Virus record (IMG/VR): IMGVR_UViG_2681813318_000003 | DNA length: 64,000 nt | From: a virus | Taxonomy: Duplodnaviria; Heunggongvirae; Uroviricota; Caudoviricetes | Reading direction: 5' to 3' (one strand) | Shown: one piece after another, positions 22,920 to 59,937 of the stretch | How positions within the stretch are numbered: the stretch's first letter is position 1 | How the letters are laid out: each line of letters opens with the position of its first letter | Notes under the pieces: model-generated | What the model saw: only the letters and a program-made list of their open reading frames with translations | The model's database searches: none | Told to the model about the DNA's origin: nothing | Translations under genes and position numbers: made by a program

Positions 22920-23000
22920 TTATTCACATATCCACAGGATAGATCCTAATAAAGAGATCCATAGATAGATCCTTGTATAGATCAAATAAGATCCCCGATC
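22920..23000. promoter_or_regulatory. origin-like region: two DnaA-box-like 9-mers and six clustered GATC sites
   Basis: TTATTCACA (22920-22928) and ATATCCACA (22928-22936); GATC at 22942, 22956, 22968, 22980, 22990 and 22997. Confidence 0.7.
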
Positions 23001-23041
23001 GCTGTAAGCCGCGCCACGACTGGTCTGAAGCCATGTTCATG

Positions 23042-23142
23042 TATGCTACCAGCGGTAATTGATAGTCTGTCAACGGTTCGCCGTATGCTGCCAACTGTTT
23101 TTGGTATGCTGCCAGCGGCAAATCAAGTATGCTGTCAGCGGT
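23042..23142. repeat. five iterons (TATGCTRYCAGCGGT-like) upstream of repA
   Basis: Copies start at 23042, 23064, 23084, 23105 and 23128, spaced 20-23 bp. Confidence 0.8.
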
Positions 23143-23162
23143 TGAATGACAAAGGTGTCCAC

Positions 23163-24257
23163 ATGTCCACAAAAAATAAAAAAGGTAAAAATAACAAAGA
23201 AGTAGAAGATAATCTCGACAACTTTGAAGAAGGTTCCCTTGAATTGTACACAGGGGAACTTGTCCCTAATAGCAACAATACAGTCCAACCAATTGCGTTG
23301 ATGCGGCTGGGGTTGTTCGTGCCCACGCTCAAGGGGACAAAATACAGCAAGCGTAACAAGCCAAATGAGATCGATGCTTCAAAGGAGCTTGTTCAGCTCG
23401 AAGTAGCCCGTTCTGAAGGTTATTCCGATATCAAGATAACCGGTCCTCGTCTCGACATGGATCATGATTTCAAAACGTGGGTGGGCGTTGTGCGTTCGCT
23501 GGCAGAATACGGCGAACCTAACGGTCGTGTCGAGTTAAGCATCACGAAATTTGCGAAGTTTTGTGGCTATCCATCGTCACAGATCCGCAAAACACTCCGC
23601 GACCGGCTTACAAACAGTCTTTTGAAGATCATGCGTACAACTCTGTCTTTTCAGAGAACGTATGAAGAAAAGAACGTCGACGGCTCTAACAAGATCTCGC
23701 TTCTGATGGTGCACCTCATCAATAGCGTGGACTACAACGAGCAGAAAGATACGGTGGTGTTCTATGCAGAACCGAAGCTGGCCGAACTATATCGCTTTGA
23801 CCATAAGGTTCTTTTGCAGTTAAAGGTTATCAATAAGCTACCACGCAAAGAAACAGCACAGGCTCTGTACACCTTCATCGAAAGTCTTCCAACCAAGCCT
23901 GCGCCGGTATCGCTTGCTCGATTACGTGCGCGACTCAATTTGAGTAGCAGGAATGTCAGCTCGCAGAATCAGACTATACGTAACGGCTTAAAAGCTCTCC
24001 AAGATTTGGGCTATCTCGAATACAGCGAGATTAAGCGAGGGCGGTCGATCTATATCCAGATTCACAGCCGCAATCCAAAACTCAAAGTCGCACCGCCAAA
24101 ACCTGAAGACATCGAACCCAAAAAACCAGATGAGAAAGCTGGGGAAATTGATGCCAAACAGAACATTATCAACAAGATAACCGAACTTTCGCAGAATTTG
24201 ACGCCTGAAAATATCAAGATGATTGAGATCCTTTCCAATAGTCTCAAACTGCTTTGA
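23163..24257 (+). CDS. repA: iteron-type plasmid replication initiator
   Basis: Flanked on both sides by iterons; start moved to ATG 23163 (AAAGGTG upstream) because the first 40 codons of the track ORF are iteron DNA. Confidence 0.75.
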   Translation: MSTKNKKGKNNKEVEDNLDNFEEGSLELYTGELVPNSNNTVQPIALMRLGLFVPTLKGTKYSKRNKPNEIDASKELVQLEVARSEGYSDIKITGPRLDMDHDFKTWVGVVRSLAEYGEPNGRVELSITKFAKFCGYPSSQIRKTLRDRLTNSLLKIMRTTLSFQRTYEEKNVDGSNKISLLMVHLINSVDYNEQKDTVVFYAEPKLAELYRFDHKVLLQLKVINKLPRKETAQALYTFIESLPTKPAPVSLARLRARLNLSSRNVSSQNQTIRNGLKALQDLGYLEYSEIKRGRSIYIQIHSRNPKLKVAPPKPEDIEPKKPDEKAGEIDAKQNIINKITELSQNLTPENIKMIEILSNSLKLL

Positions 24258-24374
24258 TATGCTGTCAGCGGTGAAATGTATGCTATCAGCGGCTATTTTT
24301 CTGAAAAGTATGCTGTGAACGGTTAAAGATATGCTACCAGCGGTATAGTGAGATAAACGTATGCTGTGAGCGGT
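24258..24374. repeat. five iterons immediately downstream of the repA stop
   Basis: TATGCT[GA][TC][CG]A[GA]CGG[TC] at 24258, 24279, 24309, 24330 and 24360. Confidence 0.85.
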
Positions 24375-24535
24375 AAATCATCTATCACCACTCAATGCTC
24401 TGGCATACCTCCCCAGTGGTTACTAACCTCGAAGAGTGCATTCCATATAGGTTTGCGCTCACTAACATTCTATTGCCGTTGCGCTGATTGCTTGTAGTGA
24501 AAGGCATTTATTGCCTGCTGCTCCCTGATAGAACG

Positions 24536-24789
24536 TATGCTGTCAGCGGTGTTTTATTGAGGAATTTTTGTTTGGATATGCTATCAGCGGTAATTAATGG
24601 TATATGTCAGACCTTCGTATGCTGCCAGCGGTAATTTTGTTCTGGTTATAACCATACCGGTACACATTATTCATGCAATGTCTTAAGTATGCTGTCAGCG
24701 GTAAAAAATCGAGTAAAGTATGCTGTGAGCGGTGAGATAAACTCTCGATATGCTATCAGCGGTAATTGATTGTGTATGCTGTCAGCGGT
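24536..24789. repeat. seven more iterons (second downstream cluster)
   Basis: Copies at 24536, 24577, 24618, 24688, 24719, 24749 and 24775. Confidence 0.85.
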
Positions 24790-24806
24790 GACGACTATGA
24801 AATATG

Positions 24807-24828
24807 ACTGCGGCACGTGCCGCAGTCA
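24807..24828. other. perfect 22-bp palindrome GACTGCGGCACGTGCCGCAGTC
   Basis: Lies between the iteron array and the convergent gene ending at 24837; possible bidirectional terminator or binding site. Confidence 0.5.
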
Positions 24829-24836
24829 GTTTGCAT

Positions 24837-25049
24837 TTAGTGTATTTTCTTTAACAGACCCCAAAGTGTTCCGGCTTTTGTAGTCAGTTTTCCTGTTTCT
24901 GGATCGTACATACGCCATTCACGCCGCTGGTGGACGATATACCCATCTTCACGTTCCAGACGCTCAAGAATGCCAGGCTGCTTGAAACCCTTAGCACGCC
25001 AGTAGCCGCTTGTTTTCTCGATTTCCAGACCTGCCAGTGTTAATGCCAT
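24837..25049 (-). CDS. hypothetical protein
   Basis: 70-aa ORF. Confidence 0.4.
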   Translation of the reverse strand: MALTLAGLEIEKTSGYWRAKGFKQPGILERLEREDGYIVHQRREWRMYDPETGKLTTKAGTLWGLLKKIH

Positions 25050-25384
25050 TATCCAACCTCCTTGCAGTCATCGAAAAGGTAGCTTTGCTGAGAAGCGTGA
25101 ACGCCATAGAAGCCCTTGTATTTGTTGTATACGAAGTGGTCTTCTCCGACGCCGGTTAATTTGCCATTACGGTTTGTGAGATATGGGGATGACAATACTC
25201 GATCGTCACGCACTACATAGAACTGGTCGCCGCTGTCTACGACCATCGCGCCATATGGTGCTTTTATGACGTCGGTAAAAGCGCCATTCTTAATGTCGGC
25301 TACAGACATTTCACACTGATAAACAGTGGTGTCGGCCACAACGATCGAAGAAAGGAACAACAAAGCGAATGGGATGGCCTTCAT
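25049..25384 (-). CDS. secreted hypothetical protein
   Basis: N-terminal signal-peptide-like MKAIPFALLFLSSIVVA. Confidence 0.5.
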   Translation of the reverse strand: MKAIPFALLFLSSIVVADTTVYQCEMSVADIKNGAFTDVIKAPYGAMVVDSGDQFYVVRDDRVLSSPYLTNRNGKLTGVGEDHFVYNKYKGFYGVHASQQSYLFDDCKEVG

Positions 25385-25599
25385 GCTGCCACCTCTTTGA
25401 TTACATCAAATGCTGAATTAAATACGAGCACGATAGCCAAAGCGTTTATGACTACTTCGTTCACCGGGGAAAATACTTTACGAATGACACCAGTGAAAAT
25501 GCAGTCGATGACAAAAGCTATTGACACGATGAGTAACAAGTATTCAATAAAAATCTTCATGATAGGTAGATACTAACTTATATAAATTTTACTGTAAAC

Positions 25600-25875
25600 T
25601 CACTCAAAAGTGCTGATGCTTAAAATACGCTCAAGATGTGCGGCATCTTCATCACTGATTTGTTGAGTCTCTTCTACGTACCAACAGTTGCCGTTATGCC
25701 AACAAACACCATCATCATCAACCATCACTGAATCAGCGTCATGACCTGTATATTCAACGAGAATGTGCTGGATCAGCGCGTCAGTTTCTTCGTCGTTAAG
25801 GCCATCGGCTTTGACCATAAAAAGCGGAAACACGTCATAGACAGTGCTGGTAACGATTCGAACTAAAACTCTCAT
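25600..25875 (-). CDS. hypothetical protein
   Basis: 91-aa ORF with the conserved leader. Confidence 0.5.
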   Translation of the reverse strand: MRVLVRIVTSTVYDVFPLFMVKADGLNDEETDALIQHILVEYTGHDADSVMVDDDGVCWHNGNCWYVEETQQISDEDAAHLERILSISTFE

Positions 25876-25930
25876 GTGTTTTTCCTTTTGTGGTTAGTGT
25901 TTACTTATTTTGTTAGTTATGAATAGGCGA

Positions 25931-26356
25931 TCAATCTTCTTGTTTAGGGAAAAACTGTTCAATAACTCTGTCAACGGCTGTGTCTATATGGAGTAGATGC
26001 CACACAACCATATCTTTGCTTCCCATGCCTTGTGTGAATATCACGTCATACTTACGCCATGCGCAGTGGAACCAATATGCTGAGTCATCAATTGGTAAAT
26101 CCTCTCCCGCCTCTTTGAAGTATTTCAGCAGCATTGCCTGCTCTGCCGTTGGCGTTGGACCTATTTCCTGAGCGTACATACGGATGAATCGCTGCCAGTC
26201 TGTCTCGTCGGGGGTTGGATCTGGTGGGGTCATTTCTGCGATAGCGTTTCGTAGCTGATGCGCCCAATCAGGTTCAGGAAAGCCTTTTGCTACTTCATCA
26301 TCAATAACATCCAGAGCCACGTTTGCGGCATCGTAGAGTTTCTTAATAGCTGTCAT
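25931..26356 (-). CDS. hypothetical protein
   Basis: 141-aa ORF; AAACAAATTGTTT palindrome 17-29 nt upstream. Confidence 0.5.
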   Translation of the reverse strand: MTAIKKLYDAANVALDVIDDEVAKGFPEPDWAHQLRNAIAEMTPPDPTPDETDWQRFIRMYAQEIGPTPTAEQAMLLKYFKEAGEDLPIDDSAYWFHCAWRKYDVIFTQGMGSKDMVVWHLLHIDTAVDRVIEQFFPKQED

Positions 26357-26412
26357 GTTTTCTTATCCTTTTAAACAAATTGTTTTCTTAATAAGATAAT
26401 TGCGATAAAAAA

Positions 26413-26430
26413 GGCGTCCAACTGGACGCC
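26413..26430 (-). terminator. rho-independent terminator GGCGTCC-AACT-GGACGCC
   Basis: Minus-strand read has the hairpin followed by TTTTTTAT. Confidence 0.7.
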
Positions 26431-26447
26431 TGAACTTTTTAGGGGAG

Positions 26448-27278
26448 TTATTTCACTGTAATGAAAGGAGTGTTAGCCCCTTGAGTCATGTACTGCGGTA
26501 ACTGGCCATTCCATTTATTGATGGCTTCCAGTTCCATAACGTTCGGGTTTTGACGCAGAGCTTCACCGCGCAGACGAATGGCGTCTGCTTCTGCTTGCGC
26601 ACGAGCACGGATAGCATCAGCTTCACCATTAGCCTGTTCACGTAGCATATTCGCCTCAGCTTTACGTTGTTCAACTTCCTGCTGACGTTGCAGAGTACGC
26701 TGGTTAGCCGTTACTTTGGCGTTAATAGATTCAATGACAGTTTTTGGGTAATCAGGCTTTCCAACCCATGACAGGCTCAGTACCTCAATACCAACCGGAG
26801 ACATCTCTTTCTGAATATCTTTCAGTGCGTTGTCCAGCAATTGTGCCTTACCACCGTCGATAAATGAGTCAGTGGTCATACGGCTGGCCAAACGGTTTAG
26901 AGAGTCGGCAATTTTCTGACGCAGATCTGATTCGGTGATATCGTCTACGCCTTTGCGATAGGTCTGGAACACCGTCGTTACCTTGTCACGATTAACCAGA
27001 TACGCAACGCCAATTTTGTGACCAATAGCAGTACCGTCACTCATCTGGAATGTGAACGGCTCGTCGTAGGTCTTCATTTGTTTGAAGGTCGGGAATACGT
27101 AAAGTTCGGTGTTAAGACCTGTCCATTGGCGACCAACGCCAACCACTTCACCAATCCCTTTGTCTTCACCTAATTTGTTTACTTTGATGCCAACGTATCC
27201 AGGCTCCACGCGATCGCAGCCAGTAAGACCCATTGTGCAAATAGCCGCCAGAGCAACTGCAAGTAAACCTTTCTTCAT
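26448..27278 (-). CDS. SPFH (band 7, stomatin/prohibitin-like) domain lipoprotein
   Basis: Lipobox LTGC; SPFH-like core followed by an Ala/Glu/Arg-rich coiled-coil. Confidence 0.7.
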   Translation of the reverse strand: MKKGLLAVALAAICTMGLTGCDRVEPGYVGIKVNKLGEDKGIGEVVGVGRQWTGLNTELYVFPTFKQMKTYDEPFTFQMSDGTAIGHKIGVAYLVNRDKVTTVFQTYRKGVDDITESDLRQKIADSLNRLASRMTTDSFIDGGKAQLLDNALKDIQKEMSPVGIEVLSLSWVGKPDYPKTVIESINAKVTANQRTLQRQQEVEQRKAEANMLREQANGEADAIRARAQAEADAIRLRGEALRQNPNVMELEAINKWNGQLPQYMTQGANTPFITVK

Positions 27279-27281
27279 TAC

Positions 27282-27482
27282 TTATTTCCCCTTTGCTTTG
27301 ATTAATGAGTTGATAAACTTACGACCAGCAATAAGACCGATTACAGGAGCACCAAAACCAACGATAACTCCAAACATGACGGCTAAATCACTCTTGGTAG
27401 AAATCAGCGACGGAACCAGTAAACCGTAGATGAGAGCCACTGAAAGGCCTGTGGCTACTGCCAATAGATAGATTTTGATCAT
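27282..27482 (-). CDS. small membrane protein
   Basis: 66 aa with two TM segments; its stop overlaps the start of the SPFH gene. Confidence 0.55.
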   Translation of the reverse strand: MIKIYLLAVATGLSVALIYGLLVPSLISTKSDLAVMFGVIVGFGAPVIGLIAGRKFINSLIKAKGK

Positions 27483-27511
27483 GTGTTTTCCTATGTGGTT
27501 GTTATGCGAAA

Positions 27512-27540
27512 ATAATAAGTAAGTACTTATATATTTTCAA
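27512..27540 (-). promoter_or_regulatory. sigma70-like promoter TTGAAA-17-TATTAT
   Basis: -35 at 27535-27540 and -10 at 27512-27517 on the minus strand; directly after the terminator, ~25 nt before the 27482 start. Confidence 0.5.
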
Positions 27541-27551
27541 GAGATAAAAAA

Positions 27552-27568
27552 GGCGTCCTGTGGACGCC
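27552..27568 (-). terminator. rho-independent terminator GGCGTCC-TGT-GGACGCC
   Basis: Minus-strand read has the hairpin followed by TTTTTTAT; downstream of the RecA-like stop. Confidence 0.7.
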
Positions 27569-27574
27569 TTGTGT

Positions 27575-28648
27575 TTACTCTTCTACTGACTCGGTGGGGT
27601 TGTCTTTTGCTCTTCGGTCGTCGATTGCCTGCAAAGCCGCAATGATTTCAGCCAGTGGCTTCTCCCGATACATCTCGACGATCTGCGATTTGGTGTATTT
27701 CTTGTCACCAATTTCAACTCGCCCGCTGGCGTTCTTTGGCAGGTATCCTTCTTCCAGCATGTACTCGACGAGCGATTCGATAACGTCGAGGCCACGAGTA
27801 GGATCGAAGTAGAATTTCCAGGTGCATTTGCCATACGGTGGTGCAACTTTGTTTTTGATGCATTCTGCGCCTACGTCCTGGCCGATCTTCTCTTTACCAT
27901 CCTTCATTACCGATGCACCAAGACGGATACGTACAGAAGCGTAGAACTTCGGTGAATCTCCACCTGGCGACGTAGTAGGGTCGCCAAACATTACACCGAT
28001 TTTTGTGCGAACCTGATTCAAGAAGATGATGCAGGCGTTGTATTTGCGTGCCCACAAAGCCAGAGTAGGGAAGTTCGCACTTGTCGCACGAGCCAGTGCC
28101 GTATTGTCGTTCATGTTTAGCTGATCTTTGTCTTTGGCAGTGCCTTCAGCCATCTTTTCGAACTTCTCGGCTTTGGTGTTCGGAACCATAGACGCAAGTG
28201 AGTCAGCCACGATACAGATAGGTGCTGATTCAGGGATAAGCTCTTCATCACGTACCAATTTAAGTATTGTGCCGATCAACTCTACAGAGTCTTCGAAGGT
28301 GTCAGGCTGCTTGTATACCCACTGACCGTCATCCTCATCTGCGTTCAGGCCATTGGCTACAGCCAGGCCAACGTCAAAACTGTTTTCATGATCGAGGAAT
28401 ACCGCCAGACCATCTTGTTTTTGAGCGGAGATCATCGCTGCTGTCGCAAGGAACGTTTTCCCTGCACTTGGAGGACCGAATACTTCGACGATACGACCAC
28501 ATGGGAAGCCGCCATCGTAACGACCGGAAATAGCTTTGTTTAACGGTGGAAAGCCTGTATCAATCCAATGAGTTACTTTCTGAATTTCGTCGTTGCTACC
28601 GATTTTCTTTTTCAGAGCAAGTGCCAGTGCGGATTTTCCTTTTGCCAT
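27575..28648 (-). CDS. RecA-like recombinase
   Basis: GRIVEVFGPPSAGKT (Walker A) and FLNQVRTKIGVMFGDPTTSPGGDSPKFYASVRIRLG closely resemble RecA as I recall it. Confidence 0.85.
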   Translation of the reverse strand: MAKGKSALALALKKKIGSNDEIQKVTHWIDTGFPPLNKAISGRYDGGFPCGRIVEVFGPPSAGKTFLATAAMISAQKQDGLAVFLDHENSFDVGLAVANGLNADEDDGQWVYKQPDTFEDSVELIGTILKLVRDEELIPESAPICIVADSLASMVPNTKAEKFEKMAEGTAKDKDQLNMNDNTALARATSANFPTLALWARKYNACIIFLNQVRTKIGVMFGDPTTSPGGDSPKFYASVRIRLGASVMKDGKEKIGQDVGAECIKNKVAPPYGKCTWKFYFDPTRGLDVIESLVEYMLEEGYLPKNASGRVEIGDKKYTKSQIVEMYREKPLAEIIAALQAIDDRRAKDNPTESVEE

Positions 28649-28650
28649 GA

Positions 28651-28923
28651 TCAGGCTCCTTTTGTTTCGTTGATTCGTTTTAAAGCGGCGGATTCGTCGA
28701 ATACAATCGCATCGTGATTAAGGAGTCTGGATACACGAGCGAGGATTTTTACGACCTGCTCGCTGACTAATCCAAACTCGCGATCTGTCGCTTTCATTCC
28801 GGCAGCGCCCAGAATTGACGGCAGTGCGATGACAGCGTACTCACCGTGATAAAAGACAATCTCTTTTGCCAGTTGGGTGGGGGTGGTTGTAGCGCCATTA
28901 ATAATCGATTTAAGCATTAGCAA
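28651..28923 (-). CDS. hypothetical protein
   Basis: 90-aa ORF between the flap endonuclease and the RecA-like gene. Confidence 0.45.
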   Translation of the reverse strand: MLMLKSIINGATTTPTQLAKEIVFYHGEYAVIALPSILGAAGMKATDREFGLVSEQVVKILARVSRLLNHDAIVFDESAALKRINETKGA

Positions 28924-29861
28924 TACCTTTCGAATGGAAGAACAAACACTTCAAGGTCTTCAAGGAACGAACGGAAATTCAGCTCGTAGCACAGTTGCTC
29001 GAATGCTTTCACGTCACGATTGCCTTTGATTGTTTCGATTTCGGTAGGCGGAAACTTCGTCTCAATCAGGTTCATTAGCGTGATGTTTCTCTTGAACGCT
29101 TCGAGCATTCGACAGCCTGTTTTCTCGTTGAAGGCATTCTTCGCTAGTTTGTTGAAGGCGGTCTTATGGCGTCCTTTGTCAACCACGATTGAGCCGTCGT
29201 TGATGCCGCGTACCATCGTTGCGACACTTCCCCATTCATGCAGCAGCTCTTTCGCACCGCCAGCACCAATGCCACCAACACCGCTAATGTTGTCCGATTT
29301 ATCGCCTTGTAATGCTTTTGCTTCCAAAAATGCGCGAGGAGTAGCGAATCCTGTCAGCTCCGCAAATTGCTCAAAATTAACCTGCTTGTTTTTGGCGTCT
29401 TCGCGCAGGCTTACCCAGCTTACGTTTTCGCGAACTAACTGAAGCCAGTCGCTATCGCCTGTTAACAGATAGATGTGTTCAACGGTTGGCTGCGCTGCCA
29501 TGCGGGATACCAGCAGCCCGGCCAGATCATCCGCTTCTGCATCTTTTGCAATGAGTTGGGTAACTCCAAGCGCGGTCATCATTTTGAGGATGTATGGCTT
29601 CTGGATAGCAAAGCCTTCCTTCATCTTTTTCATATCAGGATCGTCGTCGCGATTTGCTTTGTAGTCCGGGTAAAAGTCGCGACGCTTGTCACTAAATCCA
29701 TCCCAAAGAATCATAGGTCGGGCATGGAGGATGGAGGCATAACGACGGACGTTCTTAACAAAGCCGAAAGCAGCCTGTACTTCCATTTCGCCGTTGTGCA
29801 ATTTGTCAGATTGTTGGTGGTAATAACCCAGGCTATTGCCATCTACGAAGAGATAATTCAC
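28917..29861 (-). CDS. 5'-3' exonuclease / flap endonuclease
   Basis: LFVDGNSLGYY N-terminal motif and GDKSDNISGVGGIGAGGA helix-3-turn-helix; start moved to GTG 29859-29861 (RBS GGAAGG) because a terminator hairpin occupies the track N-terminus. Confidence 0.8.
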   Translation of the reverse strand: MNYLFVDGNSLGYYHQQSDKLHNGEMEVQAAFGFVKNVRRYASILHARPMILWDGFSDKRRDFYPDYKANRDDDPDMKKMKEGFAIQKPYILKMMTALGVTQLIAKDAEADDLAGLLVSRMAAQPTVEHIYLLTGDSDWLQLVRENVSWVSLREDAKNKQVNFEQFAELTGFATPRAFLEAKALQGDKSDNISGVGGIGAGGAKELLHEWGSVATMVRGINDGSIVVDKGRHKTAFNKLAKNAFNEKTGCRMLEAFKRNITLMNLIETKFPPTEIETIKGNRDVKAFEQLCYELNFRSFLEDLEVFVLPFERYC

Positions 29862-56798: not shown

Positions 56799-57572
56799 TT
56801 ATTGATTCATAGATCGTTTACTCAGAATGTTCACTATATGAGTACAAGCACCTGGGGTGAGATTGATTTTATTAGTCCCCCACTCTTCACGTCTTCGCAT
56901 CTGGCCTCCGTCAGACTTACCGATATCCCACGGAATAAAACCACTTACGCCACAGGCATCCTCACCCAATTCCTCTATAAAATTTTCGTTCTTCGTATCG
57001 TAAATTTCGACCAGTCCATGTTTGCGCATACTCACAGCCCAAAGAGTTGCGCCTTTTATCGTCTGTAACGTATCGCAAACCAAGTATTGATACTTATCTA
57101 CGAGATAAAGGTAAGCAAAACTTGCGATGCCTAATCCCATATAATCAGCATGAGTAAAAACCCCTCTAATCTGCTTGGCGCTGACTTTTACTCCAGATTT
57201 ATCCTTGATTGGAAACTCGCAGTAGGCCACGCGGAAGACTGTTTGGACTGGCTGCCCCACATGCAACTTGTAGGATTCAATTTCTGCTCCTATCTCAAGA
57301 GGTGTGTAACCAGCACGTTTGAGTCGCTTAACTTCCTGCTCTTGGTAATCAGGATCACATGACTCAAGACACTCGCCAACAATACAGCGTTCATAGGCCG
57401 AATCAACAAGCTCGTATTCGGTAAATCGAATTAGATCGAAACCTCGGGAGATAAAATAGAACTCACCGAGAGCGATAATTCTCGTCGCTCTCGGCATTTC
57501 AGACAAGACCTTGCTGTAGTCTTCTATTTCAGGGATTAATCTGTTCGCCTGACCAATTAGAGATGGTGCCAT
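56799..57572 (-). CDS. hypothetical protein, possibly acetyltransferase-like
   Basis: 257 aa; HADYMGLGIASFAY resembles a GNAT motif A; weak. Confidence 0.45.
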   Translation of the reverse strand: MAPSLIGQANRLIPEIEDYSKVLSEMPRATRIIALGEFYFISRGFDLIRFTEYELVDSAYERCIVGECLESCDPDYQEQEVKRLKRAGYTPLEIGAEIESYKLHVGQPVQTVFRVAYCEFPIKDKSGVKVSAKQIRGVFTHADYMGLGIASFAYLYLVDKYQYLVCDTLQTIKGATLWAVSMRKHGLVEIYDTKNENFIEELGEDACGVSGFIPWDIGKSDGGQMRRREEWGTNKINLTPGACTHIVNILSKRSMNQ

Positions 57573-57976
57573 GAAGTATTCTGTGCCGTTGATGGTTCCA
57601 TATCATCGATTTTACAGAATTTCTTCATAAAAGACTCTACAACTTGTTTGATTCGTGAAGAAATATCACGATCTAAACACTTCAAGTCAGGATATTGTTC
57701 AGCAACATCTAAAACAAAAGAGGTTCGTTTACCGTTAGCGACAACCTCGGCCAACGGTTTAACCAGTGACGTAGAATTAGAGACCTTTTCGGCACGCGCC
57801 ACATCGCTCTTAAAAGTGACGATGAAGTGCTGGCGGTTAGCTGATTCACGGCACAACATACGTCGCACTTCTACTGCGTCTTCACTGTTGTGAATACGCA
57901 TAGGAAAGCTGTCGATAACCGCAGTATTGGTGCGGATCGTCTGCATAGAACGCGTATTGTCATGATAATTTAGCAT
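57557..57976 (-). CDS. hypothetical protein
   Basis: 139 aa; overlaps the downstream gene by 16 nt. Confidence 0.45.
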   Translation of the reverse strand: MLNYHDNTRSMQTIRTNTAVIDSFPMRIHNSEDAVEVRRMLCRESANRQHFIVTFKSDVARAEKVSNSTSLVKPLAEVVANGKRTSFVLDVAEQYPDLKCLDRDISSRIKQVVESFMKKFCKIDDMEPSTAQNTSWHHL

Positions 57977-58185: not shown

Positions 58186-58431
58186 TCATCGACTCAGTTC
58201 AGGTGCCCCCCACTCACACAGCCTTTCACCTATCGTATTGTGGATAAGCAACTGTCGCTCCGTTTCCTCAGTCATAAAATCCTCTCTACTCACATAGATA
58301 GGATTTGCAGCATCGCAGAATAGCACGCCTGGAGCCTGCGTCTTAATCACGCACCCATTTATCAAACAGCTCGCGATGAACACCAGAGGCATCTTTTTGC
58401 CGCACTTCATTAACCGTTTCATTTTTGACAT
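58186..58431 (-). CDS. putative outer-membrane spanin-like lipoprotein (Rz1-like), start uncertain
   Basis: Alternate-frame ORF starting inside the Rz-like gene and extending past it; lipobox-like FIASC. Confidence 0.35.
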   Translation of the reverse strand: MSKMKRLMKCGKKMPLVFIASCLINGCVIKTQAPGVLFCDAANPIYVSREDFMTEETERQLLIHNTIGERLCEWGAPELSR

Positions 58432-58594
58432 CCACTGTGCTTTGAAGTCGTTTTCTGTCTTCCTGTTTTGCCTTCTCTTCCATTGCTCGTCGCGCCGCAT
58501 TCCCGCCCATCGTGTAAGCGCCGACCAGAACGAAAAGAACGGCAGCCAGCGTAATCAAAGCAACTTTTAGCTTTGTCATCAGGCTGCCTAGCAT
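58343..58594 (-). CDS. putative inner-membrane spanin-like protein (Rz-like)
   Basis: N-terminal TM followed by a charged helical domain; overlapped by the lipoprotein ORF. Confidence 0.4.
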   Translation of the reverse strand: MLGSLMTKLKVALITLAAVLFVLVGAYTMGGNAARRAMEEKAKQEDRKRLQSTVDVKNETVNEVRQKDASGVHRELFDKWVRD

Positions 58595-58595
58595 A

Positions 58596-59315
58596 TTAGA
58601 CCATCCCTTTCTGGTGTTTTCTTACCTGCGACCAGGCAATGAATCCTGCCACAACAATAGTGGCAATACCGAAGATGATGCGTACTGTATCCCCGCTAGA
58701 GATATGACCTTGTGCTTTATCCATAGCAGCGGAAACCTGTGGCATAACATCGGCCAGCTGTGCCAGACCAATACCTGCTGTAACAGTTGCGCCTGCGGTT
58801 TCTTTAGTTACAGGAACAGCCTTCACGGTTTTCACCGGCTTAACGACGCCAGCTCGACGCAGACCTTCCTCAATAACTTCTGCCGCATACCAGGTGTTCA
58901 GCGTTTTTAGCGGACCTCGCCCATTCTCATGGCGAATGATTGCCTCAACCAAAGGTCGAAGGATGTCGTAATCATGCAGATCGATGATCATGTCTGCGGT
59001 TACACCAACGGCTTTAGACACCTCATTAATGTAGGCGTCAGTGTTGTTTTCATTCGGCGGTGCCCAACGTTCAATAACTTCACGAATGGTATCGATACTT
59101 GAGCCGTCTTTTGCGCGACGTTTGTCGTGGTAGGTAATTAGAGTCACCGCCAGCGCACGAATCCCCCAAACAGGGTCTTTAAACGTGCAAAAGCGCGGTT
59201 CGTCTGGATTCGCAACCAGACCTTGCCACGGTGATCCTTTATCAAGATTACCGGGGTTATTATTACGAATGCCTCTCGGAGTCTTCATCCTTGATCTCCT
59301 GTTATTGCAGTCCAT
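58596..59315 (-). CDS. hypothetical lysis-associated protein (candidate cell-wall hydrolase with C-terminal TM anchor)
   Basis: 239 aa; N-terminal soluble domain (GIRNNNPGNL...), Lys/Val/Thr linker and C-terminal TM; sits between a holin-like and spanin-like genes. Confidence 0.3.
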   Translation of the reverse strand: MDCNNRRSRMKTPRGIRNNNPGNLDKGSPWQGLVANPDEPRFCTFKDPVWGIRALAVTLITYHDKRRAKDGSSIDTIREVIERWAPPNENNTDAYINEVSKAVGVTADMIIDLHDYDILRPLVEAIIRHENGRGPLKTLNTWYAAEVIEEGLRRAGVVKPVKTVKAVPVTKETAGATVTAGIGLAQLADVMPQVSAAMDKAQGHISSGDTVRIIFGIATIVVAGFIAWSQVRKHQKGMV

Positions 59316-59637
59316 TTTTTACGCCATACGCGGCTAACCCCAAAAGCAGTGCAGTAATAATGAACGACGTTATTTTAGAAACAATGCCGCCAAAGAACCC
59401 ACTGGAGATGGAATCTAACCGGTTAAGGAGTTTGTCCAGATTGGAGTGTTGAATACTATGTTGCGCCGGGGTCATATCACCAAAGTAGGTTTTCAGCTGA
59501 TCATTGACCTCCTGGCCAATTTCTTCACGTAGCTCTTTGCCTAATTTGCCAACAACCTCCCGAGCAACGATCGCGGCAATACGCTCAACTTGCTCTGTTG
59601 TAACGCCCGCCATCTCGTTCGACATATTTTCCTCCAT
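59302..59637 (-). CDS. small membrane protein (holin-like candidate)
   Basis: 111 aa with a C-terminal TM (ITSFIITALLLGLAAYGV). Confidence 0.35.
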   Translation of the reverse strand: MEENMSNEMAGVTTEQVERIAAIVAREVVGKLGKELREEIGQEVNDQLKTYFGDMTPAQHSIQHSNLDKLLNRLDSISSGFFGGIVSKITSFIITALLLGLAAYGVKNGLQ

Positions 59638-59706: not shown

Positions 59707-59937
59707 TCATTCAGCATTGCAACGGACTGATGAGAAAGCACCTACTCCAACCCATCGCCAGTTATAGATGCTACCCGCTTTGTATAAGGTATAGTCGTTC
59801 ACTTTTTTAACAGCATATATGGGTATGACTGTCTCCTGTCCACCAATGCTAGCCTCACCATAACATATAGGTGTCGGCAATTTCTGGCAGCCAGTAAGAG
59901 AGAGAACAACAGCTATTGTTAGAAATAATCTTTTCAT
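59707..59937 (-). CDS. small lipoprotein
   Basis: Lipobox LSLTGC; 76-aa precursor; directly downstream of the tail-fibre genes. Confidence 0.6.
   Translation of the reverse strand: MKRLFLTIAVVLSLTGCQKLPTPICYGEASIGGQETVIPIYAVKKVNDYTLYKAGSIYNWRWVGVGAFSSVRCNAE

Follow-up and report, generated by a model that had tools for sequence, protein, structure and literature searches.

Four open reading frames (ORFs), all on the minus strand, were present between positions 58186 and 59637 of the virus record IMGVR_UViG_2681813318_000003 (the whole stretch analysed, 64,000 nucleotides, is called the window below). They were predicted to encode a small membrane protein (gene 1), a lysin (gene 2), an inner-membrane spanin subunit (i-spanin, gene 3) and an outer-membrane spanin lipoprotein (o-spanin, gene 4). 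The region is very probably the late-expressed host-lysis cassette of a phage-plasmid of the SSU5/pECOH89 type, a reading based here on homology, conserved catalytic residues, topology signals, synteny and conservation. An original prediction had proposed such a cassette, in holin-endolysin-spanin order and with the lipoprotein overlapping in an alternate frame. The four-gene arrangement was confirmed with two of the starts corrected (to 59625 and 59288), and profile searches of PHROGs placed three of the four products in lysis families (phrog_873, phrog_1026 and phrog_1275). The proposed order was that of phage Cyrano and Salmonella phage SSU5, whose records carry the annotations Holin, Endolysin, Rz and Rz1 for these genes. 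None of the four proteins had a significant match in Pfam or NCBIfam.

Gene starts, conservation and replicon

A Shine-Dalgarno (SD) sequence, GGAGG, was found 5 nt 5' of the ATG at 59625 and nothing SD-like preceded 59637; gene 1 therefore most likely starts at 59625. Likewise, AGGAG lies 7 nt 5' of the ATG at 59288, the most likely start of the lysin gene. Both corrected starts agreed with the lengths of the coding sequences (CDSs) annotated in SSU5, Cyrano and plasmid pECOH89. The overlap between gene 1 and the lysin gene is thus only apparent: the gene 1 stop at 59302 is followed by a 13-nt spacer that holds the lysin SD, and then by the lysin start. The i-spanin ATG stands one base past the lysin stop. 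For the o-spanin gene, the most likely start is 58422 (MKRLMKCGKK...) or 58410, not 58500 (Table 1).

Table 1. Features of the lysis region, and of other parts of the window discussed in the text.
Feature	Position	Strand	Length	Remarks
Gene 1, longest ORF	59302-59637	-	111 aa	
Gene 1, putative holin or holin partner	59302-59625	-	107 aa	phrog_5093; SD-based start
Lysin, longest ORF	58596-59315	-	239 aa	
Enc34/M4Lys-type endolysin	58596-59288	-	230 aa	ORF extends to 59315
Endolysin catalytic domain	58839-59288	-	residues about 1-150	PHA02564-type, all-helical lysozyme-like fold; by alignment to PDB 7Q47
Endolysin C-terminal membrane module	58623-58799	-		weak helix 164-189, strong transmembrane domain (TMD) 204-222, basic tail RKHQKGMV
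i-spanin (Rz-like)	58343-58594	-	83 aa	TMD 11-29; periplasmic domain of about 54 aa; no cysteine
o-spanin, longest ORF	58186-58500	-	104 aa	+1 frame relative to the 83-aa gene
o-spanin (Rz1-like) lipoprotein precursor	58186-58422	-		+1 frame; alternative start 58410; open from 58500
Cor-like superinfection-exclusion lipoprotein	59707-59937	-	76 aa	phrog_1119, E=4.5e-30; LPAM_1 signal
Two conserved genes of unknown function	56799-57976	-	257 aa; 139 aa	phrog_3307; phrog_2594
SPFH/Band7 protein	26448-27278			near repB
DUF7238 protein	25931-26356			near repB

The 1.6-kb region was 99.9% identical to the Escherichia coli plasmid pECOH89 (NC_023916.1), 95% to Cyrano and 83% to SSU5. It was found in 396 PLSDB plasmids, and the cassette in 238 of 5,426 complete E. 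coli genomes, plasmid-borne every time. SSU5 (gp26-gp30) and Cyrano (CYRAN_22-25) carry the same four genes in the same order, with the same flank of a Cor-like lipoprotein gene and tail-fibre genes that precedes the cassette in the window; downstream in the window are two genes of unknown function and then ParA. The SSU5 products were 96, 94, 82 and 73% identical to those of genes 1 to 4, and the differences from SSU5 and Cyrano were allelic only, for example an o-spanin lipobox of I-N-G↓C as against V-S-G↓C. All four products had significant homologues, each in its own frame, and all four genes were syntenic in 74 of 80 related viral contigs, showing that the arrangement is far beyond chance.

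The RefSeq plasmid records label three of the cassette genes "hypothetical protein" (in pECOH89 the unnamed HXG89_RS00210-220) and do not call the o-spanin gene. As these genes are only hypothetical proteins there and sit on non-mobilizable plasmids, the cassette might be decaying, as a remnant in a plasmid that has ceased to form phage. However, all four ORFs were intact with good SDs, their products were 94-100% identical to those of the plaque-forming phages SSU5, Cyrano and PhiR41_1, and the catalytic residues and the lipobox were conserved. Decay is extremely unlikely.

An endolysin with a C-terminal membrane module and its spanin pair

The gene 2 product matched the endolysin family phrog_873 (E=6.4e-89) and PDB chain 7Q47_A, "Endolysin" (E=1.5e-54; phmmer, query 10-160 in the numbering of the 239-aa ORF against chain residues 4-168). 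It was 100% identical to its counterpart in phage PhiR41_1, 94% to SSU5 gp27 and 56% (over 234 aa) to the endolysin of Chivirus SPN19. 7Q47 is the crystal structure of the Hafnia phage Enc34 ORF39 catalytic domain, and ORF39deltaC lyses E. coli, P. aeruginosa and H. alvei with permeabilised outer membranes; Glu131 is the proposed catalytic residue, together with Trp79 and Tyr95 (PMC8943055). By alignment these three residues correspond to Trp75 (in ERWAPP), Tyr86 (DAYIN) and Glu121 (RHENG; codon at 58926-58928) of the window lysin, and they were invariant across the window, SSU5, SPN19 and a further compared locus, L005. The catalytic domain was 50-56% identical to those of Enc34 ORF39 and M4Lys of phage BSPM4 (Chivirus-type), with Trp, Tyr and Glu kept. 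By homology, the gene 2 product is an Enc34/M4Lys-type endolysin and a putative peptidoglycan glycosidase. Muralytic activity and holin-independent lysis that depends on the TMD, as shown in the relatives at 50-56% identity, would be expected of it by analogy.

Hydropathy revealed a soluble N-terminal domain and, after a Lys/Val/Pro linker, a Gly/Ala-rich helix of weak hydrophobicity (residues 164-189; Kyte-Doolittle score about 1.1), a strong TMD (204-222; 2.07) and a basic tail. No hydrophobic segment, signal or signal-anchor-release (SAR) sequence was seen at the N-terminus. The original prediction had described a soluble N-domain with a C-terminal TMD, which was borne out, and had called this topology unusual for an endolysin. 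In Enc34 ORF39 and M4Lys a linker likewise leads to a weak helix, a strong TMD and a basic tail, and homologous spanin genes, again overlapped, come after the lysin gene; because their architecture is reproduced, the odd topology is a family hallmark rather than an anomaly. The module was conserved in family alignments, and this endolysin type is defined by its C-terminal membrane anchor (PMC8943055, PMC7143992). Expressed alone, M4Lys lyses E. coli independently of holin and Sec and is insensitive to azide; N-acetylglucosaminidase activity was seen, and truncation of the TMD abolishes lysis, the module equivalent to that in the window being needed for holin- and Sec-independent lysis (PMC7143992).

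Export by the Tat pathway through the "NRRSR" of the 239-aa ORF was rejected, as no hydrophobic h-region follows it and the SD puts the start downstream of it. A single-sequence AlphaFold2 prediction of the 230-aa lysin was unusable, with a predicted local distance difference test (pLDDT) score of 36.

Other phages carry this catalytic domain within internal virion, ejectosome and tape-measure proteins (phrog_7182, phrog_2276 and phrog_992), including the Kayfunavirus "internal virion protein with endolysin domain" and PDB 9vvp Gp29. Further, the PHROG category of phrog_873 is "head and packaging" and the CDD label of the domain is "virion protein". A virion-associated murein hydrolase acting at entry was nonetheless judged highly unlikely. 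The 230-aa protein is stand-alone, with a membrane module, and is encoded between a small membrane-protein gene and the spanin genes; acting from inside the cell, its full-length relatives lyse or poison E. coli, and no other endolysin is annotated in SSU5 in the region compared.

An Enc34-type lysin homologue of 40% identity was found in a Logan contig (SRR30563942; L100:2868-3563), with a gene-1 homologue and overlapped spanins still on its flanks. All three of its catalytic-site residues were replaced (ERWAPP by EYRNLG, the Tyr lost, RHENG by VMYNG), and its membrane module was 48% conserved as against 35% for the catalytic domain. This pattern suggests an independent function for the membrane module.

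The i-spanin matched the Rz-like spanin family phrog_1026 (E=5.7e-25). Two Lys precede its TMD (Kyte-Doolittle score 2.38). It was 82% identical to SSU5 gp28, and its similarity to the SPN19 i-spanin was marginal (24%, E=8e-4). It had been singled out in the original prediction as short; the shortness is real but a trait of the family, the protein being 83 aa long in 74 of 74 related loci and 84-85 aa in Chi-like SPN19 and L005. The o-spanin matched phrog_1275 (E=1.4e-25) and was 43% identical to the SPN19 o-spanin (E=2e-16). Weak i-spanin and clear o-spanin similarity to SPN19 agree with the published spanin census, in which the SSU5 i-spanin is a singleton and its o-spanin belongs to the Chi family with Enc34 (Kongari et al., PMC6139136).

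The o-spanin lipobox is L-I-N-G↓C, in the context MKRLMKCGKKMPLVFIASCLING↓CV. The form [IV][SN]G↓C was kept in 71 of 74 loci, and also in SPN19 and L005. An upstream Cys (IAS↓C) was considered as the lipobox but was not conserved, being Phe in many alleles, and ING↓C was favoured. The residue at +2 is Val and not Asp; Val at +2 predicts sorting to the outer membrane under the Lol rule. The mature o-spanin would comprise 55 aa with two further conserved Cys. The lipobox Cys codon (58351-58353) lies 6 nt ahead of the i-spanin stop (58343-58345). The o-spanin gene starts inside the i-spanin gene and runs on to its own stop at 58186, with an overlap of about 80 nt; on the o-spanin side this shared stretch codes for no more than the signal peptide. 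Together the two periplasmic domains come to about 109 residues (about 54 + 54 aa), inside the published range of 62-300. Judged by their sequences, genes 3 and 4 encode a two-component spanin from overlapped genes; the Enc34 spanins have also been described as having the P2-like "overlapped" architecture (PMC8943055).

Annotation of the o-spanin was inconsistent in public records. Besides its absence from the RefSeq plasmid records, the Cyrano "Rz1 spanin" CDS (39 aa; L001:3993-4112) starts downstream of the lipobox, and the SSU5 record holds two alternative o-spanin CDSs (L002:3945-4175).

Gene 1 and the triggering of lysis

Gene 1 had been predicted to be holin-like. It does encode a membrane protein with a single C-terminal TMD (residues 81-99), but its only family match was phrog_5093, "unknown function" (E=8e-69). 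Its large hydrophilic domain, at the N-terminus, comprises about 78 aa and is charged and helical, with a conserved YFGDMTPAQHSIQH motif. Small size, at least one TMD and an adjacent endolysin gene agree with the usual holin criterion, and the gene is annotated "Holin" or "putative holin" in Cyrano and SSU5. The label is drawn from position.

When 1.8 billion representatives were searched with a profile, 60 relatives (E<=1e-3) of 100-140 aa came up; they share the charged N-terminal helix, the motif [YH]FG[DE]M..xxH...H.R...L and the C-terminal TMD. Gly49, His56 and His60 were invariant, so that conservation lies in the soluble juxtamembrane motif rather than in the TMD. An AlphaFold2 model built from the family alignment consisted of two long helices (10-48 and 53-104; pLDDT 86), and a Foldseek search of BFVD with it gave no match. 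Among isolated phages, gene 1 was present in 12 SSU5-like records only, and tblastn with remote relatives also found only SSU5-like phages.

Thirteen distinct genomic contexts of gene-1 homologues were sampled, including that of the window and SSU5. The broad family alignment had no conserved stretch for a locus search, and a narrower one gave almost only SSU5-like contigs. In 12 of the 13 contexts a peptidoglycan hydrolase was encoded no more than two genes downstream, and the hydrolases were of at least five unrelated types: Peptidase_M15_3 (L008, L010, L012, L098 and L099), Amidase_2 (L015), GH108 with PG_binding_3 (L013), a phrog_669 transglycosylase (L014 and L039) and the Enc34-type lysin (window/SSU5, L005 and L100). 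In the thirteenth, L017, no hydrolase was adjacent, and genes for two small membrane proteins lay downstream. That homologues precede such diverse lysins argues, by guilt by association that we rate as strong, that gene 1 is a lysis gene.

A conserved protein of 72-91 aa with two TMDs follows the M15_3 and Amidase_2 lysins in metagenomic cassettes that open with a gene-1 homologue (L008:3905-4123, L010:3791-4066, L012:3339-3593 and L015:3300-3557). It carries the motif RPY.T..V..FN...G...DYI.A.GP.N..I.GFWFGE, had only a weak match to phrog_6637 and probably represents an undescribed holin family. The lysin C-terminal module was considered as a fused copy of this protein, and the idea was dropped (hhalign probability 0.2%).

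Several observations weigh against the reading of the region as such a lysis cassette. A scan for consensus promoters and terminators around the cassette detected none. Neither gene 1 nor 28 remote members of its family matched a described holin family in Pfam, NCBIfam or PHROGs, and gene 1 has no charged C-terminal tail of the holin type, only about 7 residues (GVKNGLQ, with one Lys) following the TMD. The lysin has a 150-aa N-domain without a signal sequence, and its route to the periplasm is unexplained across the whole family (PMC8943055). Most of the remote gene-1 cassettes contain a separate holin-like protein with 2-3 TMDs, as in L014 and L039, where a phrog_8226 "holin" stands between the gene-1 homologue and the lysin; gene 1 need not, therefore, be the hole-former.

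The region may be a lysis cassette in which gene 1 is not the holin, the lesion being made by the C-terminal module of the lysin and gene 1 acting as an antiholin-like timer or an XhlA-like accessory. We regard this as possible but somewhat doubtful. M4Lys lyses E. coli without a partner and its TMD by itself is bacteriostatic, and the upstream gene of Chi-type cassettes does not itself cause lysis but makes it slightly later (PMC7143992). Remote cassettes encode, beside the gene-1 homologue, separate multi-TMD proteins, either the phrog_8226 "holin" or the two-TMD protein; the family is conserved at G49, H56 and H60 rather than in the TMD; and the L100 lysin homologue lost its catalytic residues but kept the module. 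A precedent for a cassette-leading membrane protein that acts with a holin is XhlA of PBSX (PMC5589764). However, gene 1 and the upstream gene of Chi-type cassettes are not homologues, so that the M4Lys result transfers by analogy only, and the Enc34 authors caution that holin-independent lysis by M4Lys is possibly an artefact of over-expression (PMC8943055). XhlA similarity was absent from a Pfam scan of 28 gene-1 family members, and the lysin module was not homologous to the two-TMD proteins.

"Holin" and "holin partner or timer" are comparably likely roles for gene 1. Tentatively, gene 1 may be the only cultured-phage representative of a widespread, uncharacterised family (phrog_5093) of 100-140-aa tail-anchored proteins with an invariant G...H-x3-H juxtamembrane motif, which head lysis cassettes whatever the lysin type. 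Such a family could form a new holin class or an XhlA-/antiholin-like timing partner, and the C-terminal module of the lysin might then be the real membrane-breaching element in SSU5/Chi-type cassettes. The loss of catalytic residues with retention of the module in L100 hints at this.

For the lysis cassette as a whole, we infer the role of gene 1, the crossing of the membrane by the catalytic domain, the order of events and the spanin mechanism as follows. Late transcription would read through from the tail-fibre and cor genes. The gene 1 product and the lysin would both enter the inner membrane by their C-terminal hydrophobic segments. The lysin would accumulate there in membrane-bound form and, by analogy with M4Lys, need its own membrane module to reach the murein, with holin and Sec not strictly required. 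It would stay harmless until a trigger, provided by gene 1 or by the lysin's own membrane module at a critical concentration; gene 1, as holin or as partner or regulator, would set or tune the time of triggering. The glycosidase domain, with Glu121 as the predicted general acid, would then cut the murein. Finally, the inner-membrane i-spanin and outer-membrane o-spanin would bridge the periplasm and fuse both membranes, freeing the virions.

Comparison with other lysis systems and significance

The S-R-Rz/Rz1 genes of lambda and Y-K-lysA-lysB-lysC of P2 have the same order of small membrane protein, murein hydrolase and i-/o-spanin. Lambda S105 has three TMDs, whereas gene 1 has one, at the C-terminus. 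The endolysins of lambda and P2 are soluble and that of the window is membrane-tethered, and the periplasmic domains of the window spanins are short compared with those of lambda and P2. In the P2-like "overlapped" type, as here, the o-spanin gene lies in the +1 frame and runs past the i-spanin gene (PMC6139136).

SAR endolysins (P1 Lyz and R21 of phage 21), which act with pinholins, are likewise held at the inner membrane, and a large-hole holin is dispensable for them. The Enc34 authors speculate that the mode of lysis is functionally similar to that of SAR endolysins (PMC8943055). However, the SAR domain is N-terminal and Sec-exported, whereas the window module is C-terminal in a protein that has no N-terminal signal, and lysis by M4Lys is insensitive to azide (PMC7143992). 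The Enc34 paper does not mention in its text the group of phage-plasmids to which the replicon studied here belongs (PMC8943055).

Gene 1 was rejected as a homologue of the Chi-type upstream "lysis protein B", the two showing no blastp similarity. The latter has an N-terminal TMD and belongs to phrog_7686, as against the tail-anchored gene 1 of phrog_5093. Its equivalent in SPN19, gp37 (L003:2150-2488), has an N-terminal TMD and a long helical domain and is named "Rz-like spanin" in RefSeq and PHROGs, though a separate i-/o-spanin pair follows the endolysin. On the correct strand, SPN19 has no annotation of the i-spanin ORF.

XhlA of PBSX has a C-terminal TMD. The PBSX order, XhlA-XhlB-XlyA, matches the gene 1-holin-endolysin order of L014 and L039. 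A small membrane protein leads the PBSX cassette and is needed together with holin and endolysin (PMC5589764). By contrast, the host of PBSX (Bacillus subtilis) is Gram-positive, and no PF10779 match was obtained among the 28 gene-1 family members.

Outside the cassette, the gene for the Cor-like lipoprotein, directly upstream, is missing from the gene table that PLSDB gives for pECOH89. On the downstream side, the interval from the cassette to parA holds the two conserved genes of unknown function. Cyrano differs there, carrying a KacT-type toxin-antitoxin pair in their place, and the slot appears variable. In the interval of about 23000-29000, the window is without the ISEcp1-blaCTX-M-15 insertion that stands next to repB in pECOH89, and has the SPFH/Band7 and DUF7238 proteins at the same place.

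The cassette is already known, through the annotation of SSU5 and Cyrano, the crystal structure and activity data for the lysin type and the published spanin census. The "hypothetical" labels and the missing o-spanin in RefSeq, which affect about 4% of complete E. coli genomes, are correctable. The remaining interest lies in the export of this lysin type and in the gene-1 family. SSU5-type phage-plasmids are a tractable system, native to E. coli, for the question of how an endolysin that lacks a signal and is anchored C-terminally reaches the murein, and the gene-1 family, heading cassettes with many lysin types, is a concrete candidate for a new class of holins or lysis-timing proteins.

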